Source: an uncultured archaeon
GTDB lineage: Archaea; Iainarchaeota; Iainarchaeia; Iainarchaeales; CSSED10-239
DNA: 16,100 nt
Assembly (NCBI GenBank): GCA_964586355.1
Contig: CAZPGO010000018.1
Coordinates: 1-16,100 of the forward strand
Direction of reading: 5' to 3'
The position numbers were made by a program, and so were the translations under genes. The notes beneath the pieces are model-generated. The model was not told the origin of the DNA. It did not search any database and worked only from the letters and a program-made list of their open reading frames with translations. Of this stretch, positions 1 through 16,100 are shown piece by piece. Positions within the stretch are counted from its first letter, which is position 1, and each line of letters begins with the position of its first letter.

Positions 1-480
1 TTCAACAACAGGCTTTTCTGTTTTTGGAATTGCTTCTTGAACATTTTCTTGCTCTTGAACCTCTTTTTGTTCTAACGCTTCTTTTTTATTTAATATCCCC
101 ATGCCAGGAATAATTAAATTATCTCCAGAAAAAGTTGAATAGATTGGCATTTCTTGACCCTCAATAGCAATAGTTATTTTATATAACCCATCCTCTATTG
201 TTGTGTCAGTAACAGAAACATCAGAAAGAGCAAATGTCTCTTTTAAAAAAGTAATAGTATCATTTACTTTTGCTTGATCTATTTTTAAATTTGTTATAAT
301 TGTCTCAGATTCTGTATCTAAAACATTAGTATTACAATCATCAGCATTTAGTTGAGTTACTAAAATCACACCTAACACTAAAACTGCCAATACTAAAAAA
401 CAACTAACAATCTGCCAAAGATATGGCTTTAAATTTAATTTTTGTGCCTTTTTTTCTGACACTGTTTTTTTTTTAGACAT
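1..480 (-). CDS. Hypothetical membrane-anchored protein, N-terminal part only (ORF runs off the left edge)
   Basis: I translated the minus strand from the ATG at 480..478: MSKKKTVSEKKAQKLNLKPYLWQIVSCFLVLAVLVLGVILVTQLNADDC... The frame stays open for all 160 codons to position 1. A basic N-terminus followed by one hydrophobic helix suggests a signal anchor. It is absent from the supplied ORF track because no stop lies in the window. I recognise no family. Confidence 0.5.
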   Translation of the reverse strand, partial: MSKKKTVSEKKAQKLNLKPYLWQIVSCFLVLAVLVLGVILVTQLNADDCNTNVLDTESETIITNLKIDQAKVNDTITFLKETFALSDVSVTDTTIEDGLYKITIAIEGQEMPIYSTFSGDNLIIPGMGILNKKEALEQKEVQEQENVQEAIPKTEKPVVE

Positions 481-607
481 ATTATATTTACCTCTTTAGT
501 TTATTAATAAAAATTAAATATTATAATATATTTATAGATATAAACCTTTTAAAAACTAATTTATATGTATATTATATATAGAAAAAAATAAAAAGAGAAA
601 AAAAACT

Positions 608-1879: not shown

Positions 1880-2449
1880 TCTTTTATATTCTTTTTTTAA
1901 TAGAGAAAAAATATAGTCATCAACAAACTTACCCTTAGACACATAACTTTCTCTTAATCTTCCTTCTTTTTTAAAACCTAAAGAGAATAAATGTTTTATT
2001 ATTTTTTTATTGTTTGTGTCACAATGAGTTTCAATTCTATTTAATTTTAGTTTATTAAAAATAATTTCAAAAATTTTCATTTTTGCCTCAAACACAAAAC
2101 CATTAGAAACAAATTCAGGAGATAGCCAAGAAAAAGTTGAACAAGTTTTATTTTTTAGATCTATTTGATTTATTCCAATACATCCAATAGGCGCTTTATT
2201 TTCTTTTAACAATATAACATAAAACATTCCATTTTTGAATCTCTTAGTTCTCTTAATATATTTTTCAACATCAGTCATTGTTGGCTTTTCAATAGAACCA
2301 ATAATTGTTGTGTATTTTGTGATAATTTCACTTTTAGAACAATTATAAAAAAAATCCTTATATTTTAAAGAAAAAGGAATCAATAATAATCTTTTAGTTT
2401 CTAAACTTTGTTTTTTAAGATTCAATATATTAATATTTGATTTTATCAT
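1868..2449 (-). CDS. GNAT family N-acetyltransferase (RimJ/RimL-like)
   Basis: The 193 aa protein starts with ETKRLLLIPFS, typical of the Acetyltransf_3/RimJ-like subgroup, and ends with a LGFKKEGRLRE block typical of that family. Its 3' end overlaps the convergent aspS by 12 nt. Confidence 0.7.
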   Translation of the reverse strand: MIKSNINILNLKKQSLETKRLLLIPFSLKYKDFFYNCSKSEIITKYTTIIGSIEKPTMTDVEKYIKRTKRFKNGMFYVILLKENKAPIGCIGINQIDLKNKTCSTFSWLSPEFVSNGFVFEAKMKIFEIIFNKLKLNRIETHCDTNNKKIIKHLFSLGFKKEGRLRESYVSKGKFVDDYIFSLLKKEYKRLRC

Positions 2450-2470
2450 AAATACTCTTAATTTATATAT

Positions 2471-3571
2471 TTAAAACAAACCAAAAAATATGTTTTTTAA
2501 AAAATCAAAAACAAAAACTTCTGCAATTGTCCCTATTAGTAAAAAAATCACAGCAAATATTAAAAGAGTTATACAATATTTAAAAATATAAAAAAACCTA
2601 TCACTATCAATCTTTTCCTTTCTAAGACCAGTTGCAAGAAGAGATCCAGACATTGTTGAAAAGAAATAAGCAATGGCCTCAATTAAGGTGTGCAGACCCA
2701 CACTTAAAAATAACGGTAGTAATATATAGATCAAACCAGTACCATAAGCAGCACTATAAAATAAAGAATATTGTGTAAAAGAAACAGCCCAGTACATAGC
2801 ATTCCAAACAATTAAAAGAGCAGCACCTAAGGGAAACACAAGCGCTACTATAAAACAAACTATGGTAACAGAAGCATTATTAATTAATATATCTTTAAAA
2901 ATAGGCCATTTATTAACACCCTCAAAACCAATCTCTCTGCTTGGAAGTAAAGTCTCACTCCACCCTTGATTATTAAATAAACTTGCCGAATATTCTGCTG
3001 GTATAAAAGCAATCAAAGAAGTAACTACAAGCATAACACCAATAAAAAAGAAAAAATGAATAGCCAATAACTTTTTATTCTCTTCATAAAAATCTTCTAA
3101 AGAAAACTTTTCATTATCCTTTATTCTAAAATTAACTAAAGTAACTCCATTTTTCTCAACTTTTCTAGTCCTTCCCACAAGTAATGAATTCAAATTTGTT
3201 TCATTAATAATAAAAGGAGCAATAAACAAAGTAGCAAAAAAAACAGCAAAAACACCAGGGTTTTCAGGAAATAATAATAAAGAAAATATAAAACTAACCA
3301 TAGTACCAATAATAGCATAATAAATAGACTTACCACCAGCATTTAAAAAACTTGCAAAAAATTTAGGAATATTATGTAAAAAATTTAAAACTATAAAAAA
3401 AAAATCACTTACTGTTTTTGTTTTTGGTTTTTTTTCAATCTTTTTTATTTTTTGATGCTTTTGATCATTTATAGATATCTGAGTCATTTTGCCATATTTG
3501 TTTTTTCTTGGCACATATGGTTCATCATCATTTGTATTTAACCTATGTATTTTAATTTGATCATCAGCCAT
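2471..3571 (-). CDS. Multi-pass membrane protein, possibly SpoIIM/DUF95 family
   Basis: The 366 aa protein has a basic soluble N-terminus followed by about 6 or more hydrophobic helices. The segment GLHTLIEAIAYFFS resembles the HG-x-x-E-hydrophobic block of SpoIIM-like proteins. The family assignment is tentative. Confidence 0.45.
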   Translation of the reverse strand: MADDQIKIHRLNTNDDEPYVPRKNKYGKMTQISINDQKHQKIKKIEKKPKTKTVSDFFFIVLNFLHNIPKFFASFLNAGGKSIYYAIIGTMVSFIFSLLLFPENPGVFAVFFATLFIAPFIINETNLNSLLVGRTRKVEKNGVTLVNFRIKDNEKFSLEDFYEENKKLLAIHFFFFIGVMLVVTSLIAFIPAEYSASLFNNQGWSETLLPSREIGFEGVNKWPIFKDILINNASVTIVCFIVALVFPLGAALLIVWNAMYWAVSFTQYSLFYSAAYGTGLIYILLPLFLSVGLHTLIEAIAYFFSTMSGSLLATGLRKEKIDSDRFFYIFKYCITLLIFAVIFLLIGTIAEVFVFDFLKNIFFGLF

Positions 3572-3634
3572 ATAATTGACCCTTTTAAATATGTTTATAT
3601 AATATTAAAATAAGGAAAAAGAATTTATAAATCA

Positions 3635-4852
3635 TTACCTTTTAGAATTTTGATAAATTCTATAAGTTTCTTCCAAAGTTAAAAATTCAGAAAGCTTTTC
3701 TAAAAAATCTTTTGAAAAAAAAGAACAATTAATAAACTCTGTTATTTTTATATAAGATAAATCAGAAAGTTCAAACCACAGATTATTTTCCTTAATTAAC
3801 TTATCTAAAAGTTCTCTTTTATTAGTATCTTTTGAAGGCAATTTATAATTTTTATAACACTTTACTAACAAAGAAGAATCAGAACCAAAAATCTTTTCTA
3901 AATTATTTTGTTTAGAATAATTAATTATAGCTTCTTTAAGTTTTTCTATTTTAGGATCAATATTTTCCAAAACCTTTTTCTTTTCATCTGTTAATCTCTT
4001 ATACTCTTCAACAAGCCTTACACCAGGCTCATTTAAAAACTCATTTTCTTTGATTGTTTTTAGTTTTTGTTTATGAGCAGTCATTGGACAAATACCCTTA
4101 AACTCACACCAATCACAAAGAGCAGAAGATTTTGCTGGAAAATCTTCTCTTTGTATTGCAGATTCTATTTTTTTTATAGTAGATACTATATCTTTTTCTA
4201 AACATTCCAATTGATCCTTAGTTCTAGAAGATCTCATCTCCAAATTAGCACTTAAAAAATGCCAAACAAGATCTATTTTTTTCACATTAGGAAACATTTT
4301 TTCAATAGCTATTTGGTAAAGAGCTAACTGTTTATCAGAATCTAGCTCTATTTGGTTTTTTGGATTTTTATTTGTTTTATAATCATGAATCTCTATATGA
4401 TCTTCTGAGAGTAAAGTTAACCTATCAATATAGCCAACTAAATTATAAAGAATTTCGGAATCTGCATCATAAAACCTTATAGGAATTTTCATTTCTAGAC
4501 CAATTGTTTTTCCTTGATCAAAAGGTTTATATCTGTTGTAATATTCAGTTAAGTATTGCTTACCCATTTCCTTATAATTCTTTTGAGAATAATCTGATCT
4601 TACAATCTCTATTTTGTTCTCATCATACTCATTATTCCAGCACTCAAGATAATACTCAAGAATTTGATCTAAAGAATTTTGTTTTAAAAACTTAAGATCT
4701 GTATATAATTTTTCTAAGGCTAAATGAACCATTGAGCCCATAAATGCCTCAATAGAGTTTTTCTTTTCAATATCTGGTTTTTCTATATAATTATAGTAAA
4801 ACTTTTTTGGACAGGTCTTAAAGGTTTCTAATCTTGAATGAGAATAAATCAT
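3635..4852 (-). CDS. PD-(D/E)XK nuclease, Cas4/RecB/AddB-like, with a 4-Cys Fe-S cluster signature and a long C-terminal extension
   Basis: The N-terminus YSHSRLETFKTCPKKFYY is the typical family start and includes the first Cys (C14). The nuclease core is IDRL (D143), D157-Y-K159 and QLALY. The C-terminal cluster is C246-x2-C249-x5-C255 (CDWCEFKGIC). About 150 further residues follow with no recognisable family. Confidence 0.75.
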   Translation of the reverse strand: MIYSHSRLETFKTCPKKFYYNYIEKPDIEKKNSIEAFMGSMVHLALEKLYTDLKFLKQNSLDQILEYYLECWNNEYDENKIEIVRSDYSQKNYKEMGKQYLTEYYNRYKPFDQGKTIGLEMKIPIRFYDADSEILYNLVGYIDRLTLLSEDHIEIHDYKTNKNPKNQIELDSDKQLALYQIAIEKMFPNVKKIDLVWHFLSANLEMRSSRTKDQLECLEKDIVSTIKKIESAIQREDFPAKSSALCDWCEFKGICPMTAHKQKLKTIKENEFLNEPGVRLVEEYKRLTDEKKKVLENIDPKIEKLKEAIINYSKQNNLEKIFGSDSSLLVKCYKNYKLPSKDTNKRELLDKLIKENNLWFELSDLSYIKITEFINCSFFSKDFLEKLSEFLTLEETYRIYQNSKR

Positions 4853-4949
4853 AAATAATCATTTTTTAATAATATATATTAAAGAGAGATAGATTATAAA
4901 AAAGTAACTAGTAAATAAATTTATAACAATATAAGTAAAGAACATATAT

Positions 4950-5381
4950 ATGGAATACAAAATACAAAAAAACAACCTTAAAAAAATAAAAACAGAATTT
5001 TTAGAATTTTTTCCAAATGTTTTAAAAGATAAAGATCAGAAAAAATTAATAAAAGAATATCAATATATTGCATATGCTAAAAAAAACAAAATTGTGTGCT
5101 GTGTTTTATTTAAAGAATATTTAGATTTTCCTTATATCTGGCAACTTGGTAGAATATCTACGACTAAAAAATATTTGGGAAAAGGTATTGCAAGTAACCT
5201 TCTAAAAGAGATCTCTAATTTTATTACTTTAAAAAAAGGTAAAAAAATATTAGTCTATGTTTCTGAAGAAAACAAAATCGCACAAAAATTTTACATAAAA
5301 AACAAATTTACAAAAGAAGCAAAAATAGAAAAAATGAAACTTGGAATAAAACCATTATTTATTTTCACTAAAGAATTATAA
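4950..5381 (+). CDS. Small GNAT-like acetyltransferase
   Basis: The 143 aa protein contains LGKGIASNLLKE, which matches the acetyl-CoA binding Q/R-x-x-G-x-G/A motif, followed by a AQKFYIKNKF block (the family's FY-x-K-x-GF-like motif). Confidence 0.55.
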   Translation: MEYKIQKNNLKKIKTEFLEFFPNVLKDKDQKKLIKEYQYIAYAKKNKIVCCVLFKEYLDFPYIWQLGRISTTKKYLGKGIASNLLKEISNFITLKKGKKILVYVSEENKIAQKFYIKNKFTKEAKIEKMKLGIKPLFIFTKEL

Positions 5382-5406
5382 ATTTATTTTAAAAAAAACA
5401 TTCATC

Positions 5407-5575
5407 TCCTAGGCTTTCCTTTAAAGAAAAATTGTTTTGGGATTAAACTTTTATGAAAAAGTTTATTTCTCGAGGCTTTCTTTCTATTTCGTTTTTGATT
5501 AAACTTTTATGAAAAAGTTTATACTAAGCGAAACCATTTTTGTTCTTTCCCGAGGCTTTCTTTTTAAGAAAGGCT
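5407..5575 (+). repeat. Imperfect tandem repeat in an intergenic region (about 2.5 units)
   Basis: The exact 26-nt sequence gattaaacttttatgaaaaagtttat occurs at 5441..5466 and 5497..5522 (period 56). The box (c)gaggctttc(c/t)tt occurs three times, at about 5411, 5473 and 5553. Each 26-mer contains the inverted repeat aaactttt/aaaagttt. Confidence 0.7.
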
Positions 5576-5662
5576 CCAGTGGACAAGACCCCCCTTACAA
5601 AAATAACCCCTCTTTTAAAGATCATAAATATATATTTAAATATTTTTTTAAAAAGAGAAAAA

Positions 5663-6334
5663 ATGAAACTAAAAGAATATTGTCCAGATAATAGACCACT
5701 TGAAAGATTAATTTATTATGGACCAGAAACACTTTCCACCTCTGAACTACTAGCAATAATCATAAAAACAGGAACAAAAGAAAATAATGTTTTATCCCTA
5801 GCAAATATAATACTAAGTAAGTTTAATTTAGAAAAATTATCTCAAGTAACCATAAACGAATTAGAAGAAATAAAAGGTATTGGAAAAACCAAAGCAGCAC
5901 AGATAAAAGCACTTTTTGAAATATCTAAAAGAATTACTTGTTACAGATCTAATCTTTCCACAAAAGTTTTTAGCCCCAGAGATGTTTATAATTATTTAAA
6001 TAGTGAATATCTTAATTACCCTAAAGAAAAATTAATAGTAACCTGTTTAAATTTAAAAAACGAGATAATTTCTAAAAAAATTATATCTATAGGCACAGAC
6101 GATCAAACACTCTTTTCAACAAAAGAGATTATTAATTTTGCAATAAGAGAGTGTGCTAATGGGATAATAATATCTCACAACCACCCATCAGGAGTAACAA
6201 TACCATCTACATATGATAAAATAGCAACTGACAAACTAAAAAAAGCATGTGACCTTATAGATCTTCAATTAATAGATCATATGATATTTGCTAAAGAAGG
6301 ATATTATAGTTTTAAAGAAAATAAAGAACTATAA
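5663..6334 (+). CDS. radC: RadC-like JAB-domain protein
   Basis: From the ATG at 5663 the protein reads MKLKEYCPDNRPLERLIYYGPETLSTSELLAIIIKTG, the canonical RadC N-terminus. It has a helix-hairpin-helix segment (EEIKGIGKTKAAQIKA) and a JAB/MPN metal motif (HNHPSG). The ORF track's start at 5540 is a TTG with a low-complexity leader, so I prefer 5663. Confidence 0.85.
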   Translation: MKLKEYCPDNRPLERLIYYGPETLSTSELLAIIIKTGTKENNVLSLANIILSKFNLEKLSQVTINELEEIKGIGKTKAAQIKALFEISKRITCYRSNLSTKVFSPRDVYNYLNSEYLNYPKEKLIVTCLNLKNEIISKKIISIGTDDQTLFSTKEIINFAIRECANGIIISHNHPSGVTIPSTYDKIATDKLKKACDLIDLQLIDHMIFAKEGYYSFKENKEL

Positions 6335-7006
6335 TACAAAAAAAGTAGAAAAAGATAATACTACTAAAAAAATAATAGTAATAAAAGCACTTAGAAATGT
6401 AACCTGCTTAAAAGAAAGATACTTTGTTTTTGTAAGCTTTGATAAAAGAGAAGCAATATAAAATCCAAGAATCAAAAAAGCATAAAGTCCTGAAACAGTT
6501 ACAAAGCTTATAAGAGAGTATTCTACAAACTCTCTTATAATAATTAAGCAAACCACAAAGAAAAGTATAATTATACAAGTAGTTAAGAAAGTTAAAAAAT
6601 AAGATAAATTGTTTGCCTTCTTAGCAAAAGGATCATAAACTATATACCACAACAAGATCAAAGAGAATAAAAAGAAATTACTATAACTTGCTGTTTTTTC
6701 CACAAACATTAAAATTAAAAAAAATATAGCTGATAATATAGCAAAAAAGCTAGAAATATTTTTCACAAACTTTTTTTCTAAAAATGATTTTTTTGGTATT
6801 ATTATTTGTGGTGTTATTTTTTTAATCATTTTTTTTAGTTTAATTGGTCTATGCATAAAAGGATCTTTTATCTTTTTATTAACAGATCTTTTAAAAGCCT
6901 CTTTTTTTGTTGCTGTTTTCTTTAAAGATTTTTTTGATGGAGATCTTGTATTAACATCTTTTTTATTTCTAATTTTTTTTTCTTTTTTCAAAGTTGTTTT
7001 CACCAT
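6329..7006 (-). CDS. Hypothetical membrane protein with a lysine-rich N-terminal tail
   Basis: The 225 aa protein has about 75 strongly basic residues (KKEKKIRNKK...KKTATKKEAFKR) followed by 4-5 hydrophobic helices. I recognise no family. It overlaps the convergent radC 3' end by 6 nt. Confidence 0.45.
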   Translation of the reverse strand: MVKTTLKKEKKIRNKKDVNTRSPSKKSLKKTATKKEAFKRSVNKKIKDPFMHRPIKLKKMIKKITPQIIIPKKSFLEKKFVKNISSFFAILSAIFFLILMFVEKTASYSNFFLFSLILLWYIVYDPFAKKANNLSYFLTFLTTCIIILFFVVCLIIIREFVEYSLISFVTVSGLYAFLILGFYIASLLSKLTKTKYLSFKQVTFLSAFITIIFLVVLSFSTFFVL

Positions 7007-7047
7007 TAAACTAATATGTATATTTAATTAAAAATATTTATAAATCA

Positions 7048-8154
7048 TTAGATTTTATAGTTTTTAAGAAAATCAGCCTTAAACTTATTAAAAGTACCAT
7101 TTTCTATATGCTTTCTAGAATCTTCCATTAATCTATGAAGAAATCTTACATTATGTTCTGATAAAAGAATCTTTGCAGCTGCTTCATTTAATCTATATAA
7201 GTGATGCAAGTAAGCTATTGTGTGGTGTTTACAAGCATAACAATCACAATCCTCTTCTATTGGCTTAAATATGTGTGCATTATAGCTCTTACCTATCTTT
7301 AAAAAACCCTTTCTAGTAAATATAACACCATGTCTTGCCATCTTAGTTGGATAGATAGAATCAAAACAATCTACTCCTTTTTCTATTGAAATGATCATAT
7401 CTTGAGGTGAACCAACACCCATCAAATACTTTATTTTGTTTTTATCTAAATGTTCTAAAGAATAATCAATAGCTTTATACATATTATTCTTACTCTCACC
7501 AATAGCAAGACCACCAATAGCCAAGCCATCAAAACCCATATTGTTAATAGCAAGAGCACATTCTTTTCTTAGATCTTTATAAACACCACCTTGAACAATT
7601 CCAAAAACTTTTTGCTTTTTGTTTTTATGAGAATCTAAACATCTTTTTGCCCAATCAATAGTTCTTTTTGTAGCATCTTCAAACTCTTTTTTTGAGTGAT
7701 CTGGTCCTAAAACATGGTCTAGAACCATAGCAACATCTGAACCTATAATATTTTGATTATCCATTAATTTTTCTGGAGAAATAAAGTGTTCTGTTCCACA
7801 AAAAGGAGATCTAAATCTTACTCCTTTATCATTTAAGGATACTAAAAACTCCGGATCCAATAATTGAAAACCACCACTATCAGTAAAAATTGGTTTTTGC
7901 CAATTGATAAAGTTATGATAGCCTTTTGCTCTTTTTATGGTCTCAAGACCTGGTTTAAGATATAATAAATAGGCATTGGAAATAAAGCACTGAGTATTAA
8001 GATCTTCTAAAGATCTAAAAGTTAAAAATTTGCCAGCACCTTTAGTAACAACTGGCATATAAAAAGGAGTTTTTATTTTTCCGTGACTTGTTTTAAAGAT
8101 CCCAGATCTTGCCTGTTTTGATTCATTTGTAATTTTAAACATAATCTTTTCCAT
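7048..8154 (-). CDS. tgt: tRNA-guanine transglycosylase, catalytic domain only, bacterial/eukaryal (queuine-type) sequence flavour
   Basis: The 368 aa protein contains TPFYMPVVTKG, FTDSGGFQ, GGLAIGES, YLMGVGSPQDM...GVDCFDSIYPTKMARHG and the zinc site CDCYAC...AYLHHL. These blocks match Tgt/QTRT1-type enzymes rather than archaeosine ArcTGT, which has VDSGSFQ and LFGAGHP and carries C-terminal C2/PUA domains. Confidence 0.85.
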   Translation of the reverse strand: MEKIMFKITNESKQARSGIFKTSHGKIKTPFYMPVVTKGAGKFLTFRSLEDLNTQCFISNAYLLYLKPGLETIKRAKGYHNFINWQKPIFTDSGGFQLLDPEFLVSLNDKGVRFRSPFCGTEHFISPEKLMDNQNIIGSDVAMVLDHVLGPDHSKKEFEDATKRTIDWAKRCLDSHKNKKQKVFGIVQGGVYKDLRKECALAINNMGFDGLAIGGLAIGESKNNMYKAIDYSLEHLDKNKIKYLMGVGSPQDMIISIEKGVDCFDSIYPTKMARHGVIFTRKGFLKIGKSYNAHIFKPIEEDCDCYACKHHTIAYLHHLYRLNEAAAKILLSEHNVRFLHRLMEDSRKHIENGTFNKFKADFLKNYKI

Positions 8155-9332
8155 TAAATTTTATTTCTATCTTCTAAATTCTTTAAAACAATTAACTTCA
8201 TTAACTTTGTAAATTCAAAATCATTTCTTCTTTCAGAAAGTTTTGTTTGTCTCATATAAACATCAAAATAACCTGCAGGGATATTAACTAGCGGAAAACC
8301 AAACTTTACTAGAATTACAGAAAAGATAGCTCTTGAAGTTCTGCTATTTCCATCAATAAAAGGATGTATTCTTTGAAATTCATTATGCAAGTATGCTGCT
8401 TGTTCTATTATTTTACTTGGTTTTTCTTTTTTTGACATTACTTCTAATAATGTTTTATTAAACTTATCTAAAGACAAAGACAATTCTTTCCAATCTGTTG
8501 TTTTAAAATTAGGATTTCCTTTTATGATTACATTTTGTTCTCTAATTTTACCTACGCCGTAATCTAATGAGGCCATTGCAATCTTATGAAAAGCTAATAT
8601 ATTTTCTAAATTAATATCTTTAGTTAAAAGAAAATTTAAAGCAGTTTTGTAATTTTCAGTTTGTTGAATATCCTTATATAAAGGAACATTAGGAGTTATA
8701 TTTTCTCTTAATAACTTTTCTGTTTGCGGTAAAGTTAAAGTAATTCCTTCTAAAGATAAACTTGTATATACAAAATTAATGTGATCAGGTAAAGAAATCT
8801 TTTGTTTTTTTTTATATCTTGAATATTCTTTTTCTATCTTTGTATCAATGTCTAAATCATCATAATCTAATTTTGTTTTAGTATTTATATTTAAGAAAAA
8901 CTTAATTAATAAATCAGTAAAATTAGAAGGAATTATTCTTGCTTTTAATGGCCTTTTTGATTCTATAAATACCATTCCTGCTTTTGATAAATAATCGTTA
9001 TATTTTTTAATAGTTTTACTGTTAAACAAAGTAATATCTAAATATTTTTTAGAATAACCAGATGAAAGATATTTTGCTATATTTTTAGAAACAATTACAT
9101 TATAGTCTAAACCATTTTTAAAACAAAAATAAACTAATGAGAAAAGCTCTTGTGATTTTTGTTTATTTATTGAATAATGGTTGTTATCATTTATAACTAA
9201 GCTTTCTTCTTGTAATTTATTTAGATTATTATAAATTGATAAATAAGTAGCAGACGGAAGTTCTTCTCTTATCTCTTTTATTGTTTTTTTTGATAAAGCA
9301 ATTATTAAAAAAACATCTAGTTTTGTTGGCAT
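8154..9332 (-). CDS. Fic/DOC family protein with an N-terminal winged-helix-like domain
   Basis: The Fic active-site motif HPFIDGNSRTSRA matches HxFx(D/E)GN(G/K)RxxR, with Ser in place of Gly. An upstream S-x-x-x-E-G element (SLSLEG) matches the class II auto-inhibitory helix motif. The N-terminal roughly 60 aa (KKTIKEIREELPSATYLSIYNNLNKLQEESLV) looks like a wHTH. Its stop overlaps the tgt start (TAATG). Confidence 0.85.
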   Translation of the reverse strand: MPTKLDVFLIIALSKKTIKEIREELPSATYLSIYNNLNKLQEESLVINDNNHYSINKQKSQELFSLVYFCFKNGLDYNVIVSKNIAKYLSSGYSKKYLDITLFNSKTIKKYNDYLSKAGMVFIESKRPLKARIIPSNFTDLLIKFFLNINTKTKLDYDDLDIDTKIEKEYSRYKKKQKISLPDHINFVYTSLSLEGITLTLPQTEKLLRENITPNVPLYKDIQQTENYKTALNFLLTKDINLENILAFHKIAMASLDYGVGKIREQNVIIKGNPNFKTTDWKELSLSLDKFNKTLLEVMSKKEKPSKIIEQAAYLHNEFQRIHPFIDGNSRTSRAIFSVILVKFGFPLVNIPAGYFDVYMRQTKLSERRNDFEFTKLMKLIVLKNLEDRNKI

Positions 9333-9422
9333 ATAATAGATATAGGATAGGAATTGTTTATAAATTATTACTATTTGGTAATAAAAGTATAGTTTTTATA
9401 TATATTTAGTACTAAATAGCAC

Positions 9423-10262
9423 TTAAATTATAAAAATATTATAAATCAAAATAGAAACAACACCTAGAAGTATATAGATTCCAAACCTTGGAAGATAATC
9501 ATAGATGGGAATTGATTTATATCCTAATTTCTTAATCTTCTCAATATCTTCTATTTCTAGAACTGCTCTTTTTTCTAGACCTGTTTCTTTTAATAAATCT
9601 TTATTACAAAACTCAATAGCTAAAACGTCTCCTTCTTCAAGTTTTGAAATTGGTTTTCTTCTTAAATAAATAAACTCTTTAACTTCATCTTCTAGAACCA
9701 TAACAATACAACCAAAAAACATTGGTGGGATTGTTAGGTATAGGTATTCAGGTAATCCTTCTTTAGCTACTGCATAGAAACACAATGCTAAGAAAAGAAC
9801 AAAGAAAAGGAGTGATTGAATTATTTTTCCTTTCTTTTTTTCTAATAATTCTTTTGTTATTTTTATTTTCCCATATAGTTTAATTATATAAGTTACTGAA
9901 ACAAACAACACTGACAAAAGAGAAGAAGCAATAATTGCCCATAAGATAAATAGTTGTCCTCCTAGATACGGTAAGATCATATGTATTCCAAGAAACAACT
10001 TAATATCCCCTCCACCAATCTTTCCATAATAGTAGGCGATGTAGCCAAAGACATAGATTGCTAGAGCTATTAAGAGAATTGACAATACATCCAGCCAATA
10101 GAAAGTAAAAAGATTAATAATTAATCCAATCACTATCAATGGAAGACTTATCCAATCAAATATATATCCTGTCTTATTATCATAATATGCCGCTAAACCA
10201 ACTGCAAGCAATAATGCAATAACTCTAATAATAAAAATTGTATCAAACATCATAGCACTCAC
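9423..10262 (-). CDS. A24-family aspartic peptidase (archaeal prepilin/preflagellin peptidase, PibD/FlaK/EppA-like)
   Basis: The 279 aa polytopic membrane protein has a first Asp region (AAYYDNKTGYIFDW) after TM1 and the second catalytic motif GGGDIKL (GxGD). A soluble insert of about 60-70 aa sits before the last TM helix, as in FlaK-type enzymes. Confidence 0.75.
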   Translation of the reverse strand: MSAMMFDTIFIIRVIALLLAVGLAAYYDNKTGYIFDWISLPLIVIGLIINLFTFYWLDVLSILLIALAIYVFGYIAYYYGKIGGGDIKLFLGIHMILPYLGGQLFILWAIIASSLLSVLFVSVTYIIKLYGKIKITKELLEKKKGKIIQSLLFFVLFLALCFYAVAKEGLPEYLYLTIPPMFFGCIVMVLEDEVKEFIYLRRKPISKLEEGDVLAIEFCNKDLLKETGLEKRAVLEIEDIEKIKKLGYKSIPIYDYLPRFGIYILLGVVSILIYNIFII

Positions 10263-10317
10263 AAATAATTAACCACAAACAAATTTAAAAAGATGTTTGT
10301 TTTTTATAAATCAAAAT

Positions 10318-11820
10318 TTAAGATAATTGATATATTTTATTTATTTTTCTAAGATAATAATTGGCATTTTTAATTTGCTCAGTTATAAAAATTCTTTTCC
10401 CAGTAAGTAATATTTTATTAATCATGAAGATAGATTTAAACAAATTAACAAAAATATAATTTCGGGTTTTATTTAAAGAAAAACCAAACCATTTATTTAA
10501 AAGAAAAGCATCAGCCCCTAGAACTCTAAAATATCTACCAACATCTAATAAAACAATTATATTTTCTTGATTGTTCTTAAAAAATAGACTCTGGTTTTGA
10601 AAATCAGTAATATTGTTTGAATATTTATCTGTTATTTTATTATTTTCAAAAATAAAAAAATTAAGTAAGAAAGGATTATCCTGCTTTAGCTTTATAATTA
10701 ACTTTTCACTTTTAGTGTATTTAAGATAACCTAAATAACTATTTATTGATCTTATAAACGCAGACGTAAATTTAAAATCAATTACCTGAATGTTATTTAC
10801 AAAATAATGACTTTTCTTCTTAAATTTATTTACTTTTCTAAAAATGTTATTCACCACTCTGTTCCTTGGTAAAAGATAGCTTGGTTTAATTATGTAACCT
10901 ACAAAATTTATTCCTGATGTTATTGGTTTTAGAATAGTTATTGGTTTTAATTTAAGATCTAGTTTCTCTTTTATAAACTCCTCAATCTTTTTTTTCAAAA
11001 GTAAAAGTTCTTCTTTTGATTTTGAAAGTATTATAAAATCATCAACATATCTTACATAGTGTTTAATTTTCAGTTCATGTTTAATGTATTGATCTAATTT
11101 ATTAAGATAAACGTTTGCAAAAAATTGACTTGTTAAATTGCCTATTGGTAGCCCTTTATTCTCATTTACATTAAAAAGAGTTTTATGTTCTGGAACACCT
11201 GCTTTTTTCCAAGTTAATCCTTTTTGAAAATAGTTGTTTGTTGGATTATGAAAGATTATAGTTTTTGTAAGCCAAAGCCAATTTTTATCTTTTATTTTTT
11301 TACTTAACATGTTAAATAATATATTTTTATCAATACTCATAAAAAAATTATGAATATCTAGTTGTAAAAAATACGCTTTTTCTTTTGAGTTTTTTGTAAT
11401 TTGTCTAGTGAAAGTTTGTGCTCTTTTTACTGCTTTTAAAGTTCCTTTATCTTTTCTACAAGCATAACTATCATAAATAAATATTTTTTCATAAGTGGGA
11501 TTTAAATAATTATAAAGTAGATGATGAATAACTCTATCTTTAAAATCAGCAGCAAAAACCTCTCTTGGTTTTGGATCAGTTATGGAAAAACAAACAGAGC
11601 GAGCTGGTATATATGTTTTATTATTTAAACAAACTACCAACTCTTGTAAATTACTTTCCAGATTGACTTCAAATTTTAAAGCATTAATTGTATTTCTTTT
11701 ATTTTTTCTACAATCTTTATATGCTTTATAAAGCTCCTCAAAAGTAAACTCATGTTCACGGACACAACGCACTTGTTTATCATTAGTCTTATTGTTGTTG
11801 TTGATGTTTCCATTGTTCAT
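10318..11820 (-). CDS. DGR-type reverse transcriptase with a C-terminal MutS-domain-I-like extension
   Basis: RT motifs present are PREVFAADFKDRVIHH, FLQLDIHNFFMSID, LPIGNLTSQFFANVYL (the [ILV]GxxxSQ signature of DGR RTs, aa 225-232), YVRYVDDFIIL (YxDD, aa 258-261) and INFVGYII. Residues about 405-482 resemble MutS domain I. The first roughly 23 codons lie inside the TR, so the true start is uncertain. Confidence 0.9.
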   Translation of the reverse strand: MNNGNINNNNKTNDKQVRCVREHEFTFEELYKAYKDCRKNKRNTINALKFEVNLESNLQELVVCLNNKTYIPARSVCFSITDPKPREVFAADFKDRVIHHLLYNYLNPTYEKIFIYDSYACRKDKGTLKAVKRAQTFTRQITKNSKEKAYFLQLDIHNFFMSIDKNILFNMLSKKIKDKNWLWLTKTIIFHNPTNNYFQKGLTWKKAGVPEHKTLFNVNENKGLPIGNLTSQFFANVYLNKLDQYIKHELKIKHYVRYVDDFIILSKSKEELLLLKKKIEEFIKEKLDLKLKPITILKPITSGINFVGYIIKPSYLLPRNRVVNNIFRKVNKFKKKSHYFVNNIQVIDFKFTSAFIRSINSYLGYLKYTKSEKLIIKLKQDNPFLLNFFIFENNKITDKYSNNITDFQNQSLFFKNNQENIIVLLDVGRYFRVLGADAFLLNKWFGFSLNKTRNYIFVNLFKSIFMINKILLTGKRIFITEQIKNANYYLRKINKIYQLS

Positions 11821-11856
11821 ATTGATGTTGTAGGCATTACCTGCCCCATACTCCGT
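11753..11856 (-). repeat. DGR template repeat (TR)
   Basis: The 104 nt align without gaps to 12535..12638 (offset +782). On the coding strand the TR is adenine-rich (about 43 A by my count). In the VR frame it reads T E Y G A G N A Y N I N M N N G N I N N N N K T N D K Q V R C V R E, with 11 AAY codons. Confidence 0.92.
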
Positions 11857-11990
11857 CGTGTTCTTTTGTGAAAGATCTTTTATTAAAAAATTTCATCTTT
11901 TATTACAAAAGTAGAAATTAATTAAATTTACTTTACTACCATCTAGGTGTCTTTCATCACCATGAATAACCGCTCTTGTAAAACTGCTTT

Positions 11991-12377
11991 TTATTTCACA
12001 TTTACAATTCCGGGCGTCTCTGTTTGTTCTCGCTTTTGCGAGCATAATAGCCAATTGTTGGCTTGAGTGGTAAGATTAGTTATTAATTTTGAAACATACC
12101 CGTGTGAATTTTTATTAGGAAAACCATTTATCTCTTGACATAATCTTACAACTAATTTTAATTCTTCAATTAGAATTATCAATTCTTGAATATCTGCAAT
12201 TTTTTTATTAGATACATTTGCTCTTATTACTTGCATTGCTATTTGTCTGGATTTGTTTTTTAGATCAGTTCCTATTGTAAACTTATTACCTTTATCAAAA
12301 TTTTTAACAATTTTTTCAAAATACACAGCCAAATCAAAAGAGGACTTATAAATTGCGAGGTTTTCATAATTAACCAT
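11991..12377 (-). CDS. avd: Avd-like accessory variability determinant (four-helix-bundle protein)
   Basis: The 128 aa protein sits between the target gene and the TR, as avd does in BPP-1. The N-terminal pattern YKSSFDLAVYFEKIVKNFDKGNKFTIGTDLKNKSRQIAMQVIRAN fits the four-helix-bundle (23S rRNA IVS-protein-like) family that includes Avd. Confidence 0.72.
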   Translation of the reverse strand: MVNYENLAIYKSSFDLAVYFEKIVKNFDKGNKFTIGTDLKNKSRQIAMQVIRANVSNKKIADIQELIILIEELKLVVRLCQEINGFPNKNSHGYVSKLITNLTTQANNWLLCSQKREQTETPGIVNVK

Positions 12378-12429
12378 TCTTAATCACACCACAGTTACCT
12401 TTTGCATTTTTCAAAAAAATTGCAACAAA

Positions 12430-12521
12430 AGTCACACCCCGCTGGGATGTGACTTTACAGACTCCCAAAACAAGACAACCGCTGGTTGTCTTGTTGTCTT
12501 TGACAAGCTTTGCTTGTCAAA
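12430..12521 (-). other. Three consecutive stem-loops immediately 3' of the VR/target stop codon
   Basis: Hairpin 1 (12430..12454): agtcaca-c-ccc / gct / ggg-a-tgtgact, 10 bp with one mismatch. Hairpin 2 (12469..12495): aacaagacaacc / gct / ggttgtcttgtt, 12 bp perfect. Hairpin 3 (12499..12521): tttgacaagc / ttt / gcttgtcaaa, 10 bp perfect. Hairpins 1 and 2 share the apex ccgctgg. Confidence 0.8.
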
Positions 12522-12530
12522 AACCATTGC

Positions 12531-13382
12531 TTACTGGTCACGGACACAACGCACTCGTCCACCATTGGTCTTATCGGTGCTCTTGATGGCCCCAGGCTTC
12601 ATATCGATGCTGTAGGCACTACCTGCCCCAGACTCCGTGCTTGACCAATAATCGTCACTTACTAACGAGACAAAGTTACTGTTTGTCGCTAAAATTGCTG
12701 CATTCATACAAGCATTAGATTTAGTTTGCGCAGTACATGCCTCCCAAATAATCATTAACTGACTAGCAGATGGAAGATACCAATCTGTGTAACCATTTGA
12801 ATCTAAATTATCACAATAATCCATTGCTTGTTGCCAATTCATAGTAGTTGTGTTTTGATCTGGCTGAATGTATAGCTTGCTATTCCCAAACATCACATAT
12901 GGCAAATCAACAATCGGCGCTGTGTAGTTGTTGGTTATGTTTTTTATACCTATATATTGATTGCTTGTTGTCTGTAAAATGATTGTGACTTTGGTGTTAG
13001 TAGTTAACCCTAACTTAGAAAAATCTGTTAAGGAGATAACATTTGTTCCTTGCTTTAAGGTGTAAGGGGATGAAAGATTGGTGTCTGAACTTTCTCCAGC
13101 ATCGGAAATTACCTTATATTTACTTATTACTAATTCTCCAAAATTACTTTGAGGAGAATAACTGAATTGAAGAACTCCGTCTTGTAAGGCTTTTGGATAA
13201 ATAAAAGCTTCTGCATCGGATTGAGTAAGTTCAGCAACTGTTGTTTTATTTAAGGCATCAGTTGTAAACATCTTTCCCCAATTTAAGACAATAGTCACTA
13301 AAATGACTGCAACAACGATTAACAGAATTGCTGCAATCAATGGAGAAACAGATTTTTTTCTAAAGTTTAATTTTGATTTCAT
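12531..13382 (-). CDS. DGR target protein: class III signal peptide (archaeal type IV pilin N-terminus) plus a DUF1566/C-type-lectin-fold-like variable C-terminal domain
   Basis: The N-terminus RKKSVSPLIAAILLIVVAVILVTIVLNW matches the archaeal pilin N-terminal pattern (R/K-x-x-SP-hydrophobic helix). The C-terminal half, MNWQQAMDYCDNLDSNGYTDWYLPSASQLMIIWE...DYWSST, resembles DUF1566 (Lcl C-terminal-like) domains known as DGR targets. The VR covers the final 34 codons. A GAGGT Shine-Dalgarno-like box lies about 10 nt upstream of the ATG. Confidence 0.85.
   Translation of the reverse strand: MKSKLNFRKKSVSPLIAAILLIVVAVILVTIVLNWGKMFTTDALNKTTVAELTQSDAEAFIYPKALQDGVLQFSYSPQSNFGELVISKYKVISDAGESSDTNLSSPYTLKQGTNVISLTDFSKLGLTTNTKVTIILQTTSNQYIGIKNITNNYTAPIVDLPYVMFGNSKLYIQPDQNTTTMNWQQAMDYCDNLDSNGYTDWYLPSASQLMIIWEACTAQTKSNACMNAAILATNSNFVSLVSDDYWSSTESGAGSAYSIDMKPGAIKSTDKTNGGRVRCVRDQ
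12535..12638 (-). repeat. DGR variable repeat (VR) at the 3' end of the target gene
   Basis: 84 of 104 positions are identical to the TR. Of the 20 differences, 17 fall where the TR coding strand has A. The 3' (coding-direction) 17 nt gtgcgttgtgtccgtga are identical in both and GC-rich, which is IMH-like. The VR encodes TESGAGSAYSIDMKPGAIKSTDKTNGGRVRCVRD, the last residues of the target. Confidence 0.92.
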
Positions 13383-13477
13383 TTTTTATTGACCTCTATT
13401 CTTTTTTTTCTTTTTTTTCTTTTATTGCCTTTTCTCTCTTTACTTATTAATAAAATAATAAAATAAATAGAAGAAAG

Positions 13478-13495
13478 ATATATATATATATATAT
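13478..13495. repeat. (AT)9 dinucleotide microsatellite
   Basis: The run atatatatatatatatat lies in the intergenic region between the srp54 stop and the DGR target gene start, about 100 nt upstream of the target ATG. Confidence 0.8.
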
Positions 13496-13558
13496 TGGTT
13501 TTTCAAGTGATTATTAAAAAAAAAGAGAATTAAAAAAAAAAAGATAGTTTGTAAAAAA

Positions 13559-14986
13559 TCACCTAAACTTTAACTTCTGCTTCTTCATTCCTTTCATGTT
13601 TGCAAACTGACTCATGTCCATTTTAGAAAGATCTAAACTATTTGGATCAAGTTCACCATTTTGACCTTGGAATTGCTTTGCCATTCCTTCCATTTTCTTA
13701 GTATCCATGCCTTTAAACATTTTCTTCATTTTCTTAATATGCGAAGATAGTTCTTTTACTTCTTCTAAACTTGTTCCAGAACCCTTTGAGATTCTGTCCA
13801 TTCTTGAACGAGTAAGAAAGTCAGGACCATTTTTAAGTTCTTCTTTTGTAAAAGATTCTAAAATTGCTTTATATTTATCCATCTTTTTTTGACCAACATT
13901 CATTTGATCATTCGAAATCTTATTTCCAACACCTAAAAAACCTAAAACCTTTGAAAAAGGACCAAGTTTTTTTGAAAATTCTAACTGTTGTTTAAATACT
14001 CCAAATGTAACATTTCCTTTCAAAAGTTCTTCTGGATTAATATCTTTTATTTTTTCTAGTTCTTCTTCTTGAGTTACTTCTGAAATCTTCTCCATTAAGC
14101 TTTCAAGATCTCCAAACCCAAGAACTCTTGAAAGATATCTATTGGAGTCAAAGATTTCAAAATCATCTGCTTTTTCTCCAGTTCCAATAAAATAAACAGG
14201 AGATTTAGTAATATAACAGGCAGTTAGCGCACCACCACCTTTAGCAGACCCATCAAGCTTTGTAATAATAACACCGTTAACACCAATAGCAGTATTAAAA
14301 GCAGTTGCTTGATCTTTAACAGCTTGACCAATATCTGCAGAGATTACTAAGAATGAAAATTTAGGAGTAAACACATCATTTATTTCCTTAATCTCTGTTA
14401 CTAGCTCAGAATCTAAGGCACTTCTTCCTGCTGAATCAACAATAATTAAGTTACATCCGTTTTTCTTATGAACCTCAAGTCCTTCTTTAGTAACCTTTCT
14501 TGCAGATTTTTCATTAGTGTTTCCATAAAAATCAACATCAACCATTTCAGACAATTGTTTTAATTGTTCATAAGCTGCTGGTCTATATGTGTCTGCACAA
14601 ATAACACCAACCTTTAATCCTCTCTTCTTATAGAACTTAGCAAGTTTTGCTGCAGTTGTTGTCTTTCCTGAACCAAACAAACCACAAAGAAGAATTGTTT
14701 CTGGGTTTTCAGGAAGTAGAGTTTTTACTTCTCCACCCATATATTTTAGAAGAGTTTCATAACATAATCTAACAATATGTTCTTTTCTTGTTATTCCCGA
14801 AGGTATTTCAACAAAGGCTTTTTCTTCAATTTCTTTTGAGATATTTAGAACTAGTTGTATATTTACATCTGAGGAGATTAAAGCTCTTTGAATCTCCTTA
14901 ATTACTTCTTTTATTAGATCTTTGTCTACATGCATAGAATGTTTTACTTTATCTAATGCATCTCTTAGTTTATCTCCAAAGCCCAT
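13559..14986 (-). CDS. srp54: Signal recognition particle protein SRP54
   Basis: The 475 aa protein has an N domain, the G-domain motifs GLFGSGKTTTAAKLA (P-loop), DTYRPAA, DSAGR and TKLDG, and a Met-rich C-terminal M domain (MKKMFKGMDTKKMEGMAKQF...MDMSQFANMKGM). Confidence 0.93.
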   Translation of the reverse strand: MGFGDKLRDALDKVKHSMHVDKDLIKEVIKEIQRALISSDVNIQLVLNISKEIEEKAFVEIPSGITRKEHIVRLCYETLLKYMGGEVKTLLPENPETILLCGLFGSGKTTTAAKLAKFYKKRGLKVGVICADTYRPAAYEQLKQLSEMVDVDFYGNTNEKSARKVTKEGLEVHKKNGCNLIIVDSAGRSALDSELVTEIKEINDVFTPKFSFLVISADIGQAVKDQATAFNTAIGVNGVIITKLDGSAKGGGALTACYITKSPVYFIGTGEKADDFEIFDSNRYLSRVLGFGDLESLMEKISEVTQEEELEKIKDINPEELLKGNVTFGVFKQQLEFSKKLGPFSKVLGFLGVGNKISNDQMNVGQKKMDKYKAILESFTKEELKNGPDFLTRSRMDRISKGSGTSLEEVKELSSHIKKMKKMFKGMDTKKMEGMAKQFQGQNGELDPNSLDLSKMDMSQFANMKGMKKQKLKFR

Positions 14987-15144
14987 ATTTGATCAAATAT
15001 ATATTTTAGTATATATATTTTAAATAAGAAATAAATATAAAAGGGTATTTTCTGTTTAAAAAAAGCTTATAAAAAAGAAAAATAAATTTTTATCTTATTT
15101 CTGTTTTTTATTAATAGTTTAAAAAAAAGTTCAATAAATTAAAA

Positions 15145-15426
15145 CTATTTTAAAAAAAGACCTTTAATAAAAGATCTATTATTCTTAAAAACCACAAAAG
15201 ATTTTGATATTTTATTATTTAAAATTAAGCCTATAGTTCCAGAAGTTTTATCAGAACTATTTATTTCATTAAAAACATCTGCTTGATTTAAATCTTCTTC
15301 AATCACTATTCTATTTCTAGATTTTGTTGAATTTTGTATTAAAAATATTGAAACTAAAACAGCCCCAAGAATAACTATTCCTAACAAAATAATTATTTCT
15401 ATTGATATTTGTCCTTTTTTTACCAT
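15145..15426 (-). CDS. Small class III signal peptide (type IV pilin-like) protein
   Basis: The 93 aa protein starts MVKKGQISIEIIILLGIVILGAVLV. This is the KGQ-x-S-x-E motif followed by a hydrophobic helix, as in EppA/PibD-processed archaeal pilins (DUF361-like). Confidence 0.65.
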   Translation of the reverse strand: MVKKGQISIEIIILLGIVILGAVLVSIFLIQNSTKSRNRIVIEEDLNQADVFNEINSSDKTSGTIGLILNNKISKSFVVFKNNRSFIKGLFLK

Positions 15427-15449
15427 CCATAATCACAATTAAATTTTTA

Positions 15450-16100
15450 TTATTCTTTAACTTCAATATAAAGAGGTTCTAAATATCTTTTAGTTGAAAA
15501 AGGATCCTCAATATAATAAACAAACTTATAATTTCCTGGAGAATTACATATTACAGAATTTTCAAAACTATAAAAATCCTTAACTTCACTGGTACTACCT
15601 AATTCCTCATAAAACCCAGAACCACTTGAAGTACCTTGATCAGAATAACACTCTTCTGTGGATTCATAATAGTTAGGACTAGTCTCCTTTTGAATACTTA
15701 AATTTTTAATCCCATAAGAAGAATTTTCGAGAATAGTTTCATAAGAATAAATAAAAATTGTAAACTCTTCTCCTGGTGATCTTACTAAACCTGAAGAATA
15801 TGCAAAAGCATCACTTATATAAATGTTAACTGGTGAACTCCAAGAAACAACACCATCTTTTTTACCAGAATATCTTATTTGATATTCTCCTTTAGCTCTA
15901 CAACTAATTTCTGGAAGTATTAAATTATATTCAGATATCATAGGATCTAAGTTAATTCCAAAACTACCAATAGAGACAAGAATTAAAATTTCTCCAAAAC
16001 AATCATTAGTTAGCACAAACGAAGCACCTTGTTTTTTTTTAATTTCTATTTCAGTAATTTCTGTTCCTTCTTTGTAATTTGAGGTTAGATTAAGATCAAA
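15450..16100 (-). CDS. Hypothetical secreted/surface protein, C-terminal part (ORF open to the right edge)
   Basis: The ORF track starts it at a GTG (16016). However, the same frame translates without a stop through 16017..16100 (FDLNLTSNYKEGTEITEIEIKKKQGASF-VLTND...), so the gene most likely begins outside the window. It is Ser/Tyr/Glu-rich and I recognise no family. Confidence 0.5.
   Translation of the reverse strand, partial: FDLNLTSNYKEGTEITEIEIKKKQGASFVLTNDCFGEILILVSIGSFGINLDPMISEYNLILPEISCRAKGEYQIRYSGKKDGVVSWSSPVNIYISDAFAYSSGLVRSPGEEFTIFIYSYETILENSSYGIKNLSIQKETSPNYYESTEECYSDQGTSSGSGFYEELGSTSEVKDFYSFENSVICNSPGNYKFVYYIEDPFSTKRYLEPLYIEVKE

Follow-up and report, generated by a model that had tools for sequence, protein, structure and literature searches.

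Why should the reverse transcriptase (RT) of a diversity-generating retroelement (DGR) carry, beyond its thumb, about 100 further residues that resemble a DNA mismatch repair protein? The question is raised by a locus of an uncultured archaeon (Iainarchaeota), which lies in a 16,100-nucleotide stretch of DNA (assembly GCA_964586355.1, contig CAZPGO010000018.1, positions 1 to 16,100; hereafter the window). In the window, an open reading frame (ORF) of 500 aa on the reverse strand (10318..11820), recognized from the ORF list, its translation and a Pfam RVT_1 match (E 7e-21), encodes the DGR RT together with this extension. An initial annotation of the locus likened the extension to domain I of MutS (MutS_I) and proposed that it could recognize or protect the mismatched heteroduplex formed when the cDNA pairs with the variable repeat (VR) of the target gene. 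The principal unsolved step in mutagenic retrohoming is how the cDNA comes to replace VR and how repair of the resulting, heavily mismatched heteroduplex is avoided.

Identity of the C-terminal extension

The RT comprises four consecutive parts, all encoded on the reverse strand. The fingers and palm (residues 88-293; 10942..11559) were assigned by Pfam RVT_1 and contain the IGNLTSQ and YVDD motifs, which appear in the translation as LPIGNLTSQ and RYVDDF. They are followed by a thumb-like helical region (residues ~296-388; 10657..10935), which was delimited by the secondary structure of a full-length AlphaFold2 (AF2) model and by alignment with the Bordetella DGR RT (bRT) and group II intron RTs, and by a short connector (residues 389-404; 10609..10656) that forms a beta-hairpin with strands at 389-392 and 395-398. 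The remainder of the protein, residues 405-500 (10321..10608), is assigned to MutS domain I by Pfam PF01624, a profile search of the PDB, AF2 and Foldseek. The initial annotation had given the feature as 10375-10608 (residues 405-482). These coordinates match and the peptide quoted for them is present, but the domain reaches the stop codon, because a final beta-hairpin (residues 476-499), whose equivalent in MutS is the segment around ERKVVRIVTPG, is part of it.

When the C-terminal 127 aa (residues 374-500) were searched in isolation, Pfam MutS_I (PF01624) matched residues 407-488 with a score of 23.3 bits (E 8e-5), which is above the gathering cut-off of 20.6 bits; the score for the whole protein, 19.7 bits (E 1e-3), was just under it. 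A family profile of 48 homologous C-termini (profile A2), searched against all PDB sequences, retrieved 26 distinct MutS/MSH6/MSH3 sequences, with Taq MutS (residues 13-114, E 1.4e-11) as the top match and E. coli MutS (residues 13-115) at E 7e-9, while the first unrelated match appeared only at E 0.6. A second profile (A4), made only of 13 sequences from the clade to which the window belongs (see below), returned exclusively MutS-family chains, with human MSH3 as the best (E 2e-4) and Taq MutS at E 0.34. Thus, the MutS identity is not borrowed from canonical bacterial sequences. The AF2 model of residues 397-500 had a mean pLDDT of 94.3 and a pTM of 0.86, and all of its top 50 Foldseek matches in the PDB were MutS, MSH2, MSH3 or MSH6 chains (query-normalised TM-score 0.58-0.78, E down to 6e-5). 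In the viral library, the matches were giant-virus MutS7 and phage proteins of small size that bear the name "MutS domain I" or "DNA mismatch repair protein." Although these four lines of evidence are only partly independent, residues ~405-500 of the RT are almost certainly a true homologue of MutS domain I. The resemblance pointed out in the initial annotation is therefore borne out by significant Pfam, PDB profile and Foldseek matches, including the score above the PF01624 cut-off for the isolated C-terminus and the exclusively MutS/MSH structural neighbors.

It could still be argued that the resemblance is due to chance or to the composition of an AT-rich genome and that the extension has an unrelated fold, given that the whole-protein Pfam score falls below the cut-off and that a G+C content of ~24% yields proteins rich in K, N and I. 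We consider this extremely improbable: the isolated domain passes the cut-off, both profiles and the Foldseek top 50 recover the MutS family only, and homologues from bacteria of normal G+C content carry the literal MutS motif QVGxFYEFY. Chance similarity to MutS is refuted by the family profile, the clade-only profile and the Foldseek results.

Pfam found RVT_1 and MutS_I alone in the RT ORF, which ends where domain I ends, and none of the domains MutS_II to MutS_V (connector, lever/clamp and ABC ATPase). Judged by this domain content, the RT ORF is not a canonical MutS mismatch repair protein. The possibility that MutS_I is a frameshifted or separate ORF was rejected, as one uninterrupted reading frame covers RT and MutS_I both here and in >100 homologues. 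In the full-length AF2 model (pLDDT 91.4, pTM 0.83), whose closest PDB structure is the Bordetella DGR bRT (8ub7_A; target-normalised TM-score 0.89, 30% identity), the connector between the thumb and MutS_I shows no predicted disorder (pLDDT 92-95 across residues 380-410), and MutS_I is predicted to be rigidly docked on the thumb. The domain is strongly basic, with a net charge of +9 in the window and a mean of +12 in other fusions.

Distribution of the domain and the variant motif of an archaeal clade

A MutS_I block of ~80 residues was found at the equivalent place in 105 of the 120 best RT homologues (106/121 with the window included), down to ~45% identity in the RT core; by our own count, 63/120 homologues have a precomputed PF01624 match. 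The fusion was confirmed on DNA for two of them (L001 and L004). Fused RTs are also encoded in bacterial metagenome-assembled genomes (MAGs) of Thermodesulfovibrionales, Omnitrophica, KSB1, Proteobacteria and Magnetomoraceae. Searching the domain profile against 1.84 billion representative sequences gave 480 clusters at E<=1e-10 and 8971 at E<=1e-3, the latter including true MutS. Counts of standalone versus fused domains in this library are confounded by gene fragments, and the matches of 100-330 aa were rejected as standalone genes, since several of those inspected were C-terminal fragments of RTs.

The extension is thus retained in 106/121 aligned sequences, as would be expected of a conserved module, but not in all related RTs. 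About 20 complete DPANN DGR RTs (336-424 aa, ~40% identity) are without MutS_I and group apart as a clade of their own (100% bootstrap support); MutS_I is not a general feature of DPANN. The domain is also absent from a close relative (P0004/L003; also L002:1631-3058), whose RT is 74% identical to that of the window and is placed inside its inner clade with 99% bootstrap support. This RT ends at the equivalent of residue ~408 and is followed by a 189-bp spacer, in which no remnant of MutS_I was found by tblastn. In this lineage, the domain was cleanly lost while the target gene, avd and the template repeat (TR) were kept. Loss probably also occurred in P0022, P0023 and P0090.

A standalone version of the domain was found in a MAG named "uncultured Clostridium sp." (L023:444-2345), where a MutS_I ORF precedes avd (E 4e-19) and a 373-aa RT without the extension. 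This ORF matched Pfam MutS_I at E 2.4e-10 and the hidden Markov model (HMM) of the RT-fused domain at E 4e-9, and it has the motif GKFYT, in which Thr replaces the Glu of MutS. Because the standalone ORF matches the RT-domain HMM, the RT-fused domain and the standalone MutS-like (Msl) accessory proteins of DGRs appear from sequence to be the same module. No target gene was found within the 5 kb examined at this locus; a PD-(D/E)XK transposase-like gene lies downstream of the cassette. No MutS_I match was found within the 4 kb examined at a Legionella drancourtii locus (L033), and no MutS_I ORF within the DNA examined at a Duncaniella locus (L028). A tblastn search of the domain consensus against 50,697 phage records gave no match. 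A protein of 114 aa (P0134) has an Avd-like N-terminus (MAQYEHLAIYKKAMDL; compare NYENLAIYKSSFDL in the Avd of the window) that runs straight into MutS_I; a deletion may have fused avd with the tail of the RT gene here, or the assembly may be at fault.

The mismatch motif of MutS, G-x-Phe-x-Glu, corresponds in the window to G428-R-Y430-F-R432 (10525..10539, reverse strand), as determined from the translation and MutS alignments. Phe-x-Glu is a functional motif and not a requirement of the fold, and both MSH3 and MSH2 are without it. In the HMM alignments, Y430 stands opposite F36 of E. coli MutS (F39 of Taq MutS) and R432 opposite E38 (E41 of Taq MutS). The initial annotation was therefore right that GDFYE reads GRYFR here: Y430-F431-R432 retains the aromatic residue but has Arg where MutS has Glu.

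Further comparison revealed that this change marks a clade. The consensus over 106 RT-fused domains, QVG(R/C/K)(F/Y)(Y/F)E(F)Y, reproduces the MutS motif to the letter, and the Glu position is occupied by E in 79, Q in 9 and K in 2 of the 91 fusions outside the clade. In the clade itself, which consists of the window, P0001-3 and P0005-15 (15 sequences), 14 members have R and one has S. Similarly, the GFP motif found in the 91 other fusions (G in 88, F in 85 and P in 75) is N/D-I/L-x in 15/15 clade members, and position 482, mostly E in the other fusions, is Q in the clade. An aromatic residue (Y/F) is present at position 430 in 12/15 clade members; the three most divergent ones, P0013-P0015, have K, W or M. 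The clade was recovered in 74/100 bootstrap replicates of a neighbor-joining tree of the RT core, which is a distance tree and not a maximum likelihood tree. Q410, G428 and R491 are nearly invariant across the 106 fused domains, whereas F407, Q410, F414, V427, A438, Q482 and R491 are invariant within the clade and R432 is found in >90% of its members.

In the mismatch-binding domains of MutS and MSH6, Phe-X-Glu intercalates at the mispair, while in MSH3 a Tyr-Lys pair engages the junction of double- and single-stranded DNA at loops (PMC11912836; PMC12231599). Given that the clade is without the Glu and that a few of its members are without an aromatic residue at position 430, mismatch specificity appears doubtful in the window's clade. 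The replacement Arg is itself kept in 14/15 clade members, which indicates selection for a new state rather than drift.

The changes in the clade could instead mean that its domain is a decaying or purely structural remnant of an ancestral functional fusion, kept only for RT folding and stability or for contacts such as those with Avd and without any role in binding nucleic acids. The replacement of Glu and of GFP in all or nearly all clade members, and of the intercalating aromatic residue by K, W or M in three, would fit such decay, as would the faster evolution of the domain (21-62% identity to the window, versus 53-78% for the RT core) and its outright loss in one nested lineage and probably in P0022, P0023 and P0090. 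In comparison with a 95%-identical relative, dN/dS was 0.47 for the domain and 0.24 for the RT, a difference that is uninformative as the domain has only 9 substitutions. The domain has, however, kept a constant length without stop codons down to ~51% RT-core identity, seven of its positions and nearly always R432 are unchanged throughout the clade, its fold is predicted at a pLDDT of 94, and its net charge of +9 is maintained. With the replacement Arg also conserved (14/15), we regard a mere remnant as unlikely.

Candidate roles in retrohoming

We tentatively favor, at somewhat less than even chances, the view that the domain binds the mismatch-rich cDNA:VR heteroduplex without licensing repair and thereby stabilises or hides that duplex. 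In this scheme, MutS_I would be a non-catalytic nucleic-acid-binding module that, without connector, clamp and ATPase domains, could neither signal to MutL nor license repair. As part of the RT, it would remain with the adenine-mutagenised cDNA and bind the distorted, mismatch-rich duplex that forms when this cDNA pairs with VR. The heteroduplex would then be stabilised, shielded from host mismatch surveillance, or both, until it is resolved toward the new sequence. The replacement of Glu by Arg, and of GFP by N/D-I/L-x, suggests that binding in the window's clade might depend less on single mispairs and more on charge, or might favor loops and bubbles as in MSH3, instead of reading mispairs in the classical way.

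Several observations support binding of the heteroduplex. The domain is retained in 106/121 RTs, Phe-x-Glu is kept in 79/91 of the fusions outside the clade, and the domain is strongly basic. The orphan MutS_I domains in giant proteins of mobile elements (discussed below) were counted as a parallel. In Bacteroides, deletion of mutS raised retrohoming 5-10 fold, in an all-or-nothing manner (bioRxiv 10.1101/2024.11.15.621889), and in engineered E. coli DGR systems a dominant-negative MutL was added or mutS was deleted to raise mutagenesis. Given that host MutS cuts DGR output 5-10 fold and that engineered DGRs disable mismatch repair, a mismatch-binding domain carried by the DGR itself, as Msl or fused to the RT, is an obvious natural candidate for handling mismatch repair. 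The idea of the initial annotation, that the domain could recognize or protect the mismatched cDNA:VR heteroduplex, is plausible.

Other observations weigh against this view. MutS owes its grip on DNA mostly to the clamp domains, and an isolated domain I may bind weakly. The DPANN RTs of the separate clade do without the domain, and in the domain-less relative P0004/L003, 16/18 differences between TR and VR still fall at adenines; because this adenine bias persists, MutS_I is accessory and not essential. The Glu is missing across the window's clade and the aromatic residue in P0013-P0015. Literature searches turned up no study in which an Msl or an RT-fused MutS_I was tested for binding or by genetics, and searches on mismatch repair genes in DPANN archaea yielded nothing usable on host MutS/MutL or NucS/EndoMS. 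Finally, the full-length model (pTM 0.83) has no flexible tether between the RT and the domain, which fits a role at the duplex exit of the RT equally well or better.

The last point leads to an alternative in which the domain acts at the polymerase. Docked on the thumb like the "D" domain of group II intron RTs, it would grip the template RNA:cDNA duplex or the primer or target DNA, and, without depending on host mismatch repair, it would help the RT to extend past mismatches, to remain processive or to prime; the RNA:cDNA hybrid is mispaired at each misread adenine. Apart from the confident full-length model without a low-confidence linker between the thumb and MutS_I, this alternative draws on the position of the domain, which sits where GsI-IIC-type RTs carry extra C-terminal DNA-binding sequence (targets of 415-425 residues, versus 328 for bRT), on its very basic character, and on the loss of the Glu in the clade, which speaks against classical reading of DNA mispairs. 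Rigid docking on the thumb is, however, not required, as the module is a separate small protein in other DGRs, such as that of L023 and those with MSL genes described by Wu et al. (2018; PMC5758913). The relative without the domain keeps the adenine-specific TR/VR pattern, so that adenine-mutagenic cDNA synthesis is independent of the domain. Moreover, MutS domain I reads B-form DNA from the minor groove and not A-like RNA:DNA hybrids. We give a polymerase-side role a probability well short of even.

A further, quite unlikely proposal is that the RT-fused MutS_I of DPANN has been re-specialised as a new kind of heteroduplex handler, which would act on clustered-mismatch bubbles of cDNA:VR or on the mispaired RNA:cDNA hybrid in the cDNA integration step. 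The changes involved would be the replacement of Glu by Arg and of GFP by N/D-I/L-x, an MSH3-like behavior and the predicted rigid docking on the thumb. A domain of this kind might hold the heteroduplex through replication or shield it from a NucS/EndoMS-like mismatch-cleaving endonuclease in hosts without MutS/MutL. If the proposal is true, the domain would give direct access to the process by which DGR cDNA enters the genome.

Whichever role applies, the locus and its relatives provide material for comparing them. The domain-less relative is a natural deletion control for domain function, the Phe-x-Glu majority and the archaeal Arg clade are two natural alleles, and the domain is a defined module of ~100 residues that can be added to or removed from reconstituted DGRs. 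For annotation, RTs of ~500 aa with this tail should be labeled as DGR RT plus Msl domain.

The cassette and its relation to known systems

The RT belongs to a compact cassette, in which the target gene, avd, TR and the RT gene all lie on the reverse strand. TR (11753..11856), found by a repeat search (family D1), overlaps the first 23 codons of the RT gene; VR (12535..12638), identified by the repeat search and the TR/VR alignment, forms the 3' end of the target gene. TR and VR have identical 3' ends and, in their homologous core, 22 mismatches, of which 17 fall on adenines of TR. Between TR and the target gene lies an Avd-like accessory gene of 128 aa (11991..12377; Pfam bAvd E 8.3e-9, under the gathering cut-off), which is syntenic in three relatives (L001, L002 and L034). 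The target gene (12531..13382) encodes 283 aa with a pilin-like N-terminus and a VR-bearing, C-type-lectin-like Lcl_C domain at the C-terminus (Pfam Lcl_C E 2.5e-16). The motif IGNLTSQ is a hallmark of DGR RTs. It is present in the RT adjacent to TR, whose best structural match, bRT 8ub7, is likewise of the DGR type. The element in the window is a complete, bona fide DGR and is apparently active.

TR is in frame with the 5' end of the RT gene, so that TR encodes RT residues 1-23 (MNNGNINNNNKTNDKQVRCVREH, 11752-11820), which mirror the C-terminal end of the target protein. The full-length AF2 model predicts disorder for residues 1-19 of the RT (pLDDT <50). In many homologues, the called RT ORF reaches further upstream through TR, which explains the precomputed Lcl_C (PF07603) matches on RT proteins of 540-600 aa. 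The window has a G+C content of ~0.24, which rises to 0.30-0.36 over 11500-14500 (TR, avd, target gene and SRP54), and the TR/VR segment in particular stands out by a G+C content well above that of its flanks.

The genes around the cassette are cellular, encoding SRP54, tRNA-guanine transglycosylase, a class II aminoacyl-tRNA synthetase and a prepilin peptidase. An RT that is 75% identical occurs in the same type of cassette on a 440-kb contig with genes for archaeal histone, L37ae, Pcc1 and prefoldin, and the named relatives are MAGs of Woesearchaeota, Pacearchaeota and Nanoarchaeota. These genes and relatives make a DPANN archaeon the most likely host. The N-terminus of the target protein, ahead of the Lcl_C/VR domain, resembles archaeal type IV pilins (RKKSVSPLIAAILLIVVAVIL; Pfam Pilin_N E 0.008, weak). 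The type IV prepilin peptidase gene (Peptidase_A24; 9423-10262) is directly downstream of the RT gene, and an ORF of 93 aa (15145-15426) has a pilin-like start, too. Given the pilin-like N-terminus, the neighboring prepilin peptidase gene and the pilin-like ORF, the diversified protein may be an adhesin displayed on a pilus. The neighborhood also encodes a PD-(D/E)XK nuclease of 405 aa (PDDEXK_1, E 2e-35; 3635-4852) and a protein that combines a Fic domain with a winged-helix-like region at its N-terminus (8154-9332).

The RT body of this element, the type of its Avd partner and its adenine-specific TR-to-VR logic are shared with the bRT of BPP-1 (8ub7), but bRT has only 328 aa, ends after the thumb and is without MutS_I. 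Structurally, the extension has the same fold as domain I of MutS/MSH6 (E. coli 1e3m; Taq 1ewq) and is colinear with it over ~100 residues, and most fusions keep G-x-Phe-x-Glu. In contrast to MutS/MSH6, the RT of the window is without domains II-V, and hence without clamp, ATPase and MutL signaling, and its motif is Tyr-Phe-Arg instead of Phe-Tyr-Glu.

Human MSH3 of MutSbeta (3thw, 8r7e) is the top structural match (query-normalised TM-score 0.77) and has Arg at the Glu position as well (GYKYR in MSH3, GRYFR or GKYYR in the clade; ECGYKYRFF versus dVgkyyrvl). MSH3 binds loops and junctions of double- and single-stranded DNA and not single mispairs (PMC11912836). The parallel is limited to the Arg, since the Tyr-Lys pair of MSH3 is not kept in the clade, where position 429 is variable; moreover, MSH3 works within a full MutS heterodimer. 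The Arg common to both may be convergent.

Orphan MutS_I domains are also known from polyvalent proteins of conjugative elements and phages. Iyer et al. (2017) described giant proteins of mobile elements in which they stand in tandem with anti-restriction modules, ArdC-N or DarA_C (PMC5512222). Among our matches, four proteins of 1060-2323 aa (P0124, P0141, P0191 and P0241) contain 2-4 tandem MutS_I copies, and three of the four also have DarA_C, ArdC-N or DUF285; these proteins match polyvalent proteins. Their MutS_I copies outscore true MutS on the RT-domain profile. Like the RT of the window, polyvalent proteins present an orphan, predicted DNA-binding MutS domain I in a mobile element. They differ in that their domains form tandem arrays with ArdC-N, DarA_C or DUF285 and are delivered with the incoming DNA, whereas the domain in the window is a single copy fused to an RT. 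A second case of attachment to a polymerase was observed in a protein of 544 aa (P0233), in which an N-terminal MutS_I is fused to a Prim-Pol primase/polymerase.

The closest precedents come from DGRs themselves. As the initial annotation had pointed out, DGR surveys mention an MSL accessory module: Wu et al. (2018; PMC5758913) described MSL accessory genes in 16 DGRs. Bacteroides DGRs also encode Msl (bioRxiv 10.1101/2024.11.15.621889). Like the domain in the window, the standalone MSL/Msl proteins (architecture D of Wu et al.; Bacteroides Bfr, Bth and Bun; Legionella) are homologues of MutS domain I in cassettes with avd. They are, however, separate proteins of 112-283 aa with a near-neutral isoelectric point (PMC5758913), whereas the module in the window is strongly basic, predicted to be rigidly docked and fused to the RT, the frame running from thumb to domain without a stop codon; it is the fused counterpart of an MSL gene. 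Wu et al. (2018; PMC5758913) further noted that ~20% of DGR RTs have C-terminal extensions and that three related RTs have a weak MutS_I motif in theirs, with "weak sequence identity." Those three RTs (NAR 46:11; PMC5758913) resemble that of the window in having a MutS_I-like extension after the thumb and avd in the cassette, but their description included no analysis of structure or conservation; in the present analysis, the homology proves firm and the fusion common. The RT of the window is a member of the archaeal clade in which the Glu of the motif has become Arg. The kind of element was thus known but barely described, and what is new here is the firm homology, the commonness of the fusion and the clade with a conserved Arg variant.

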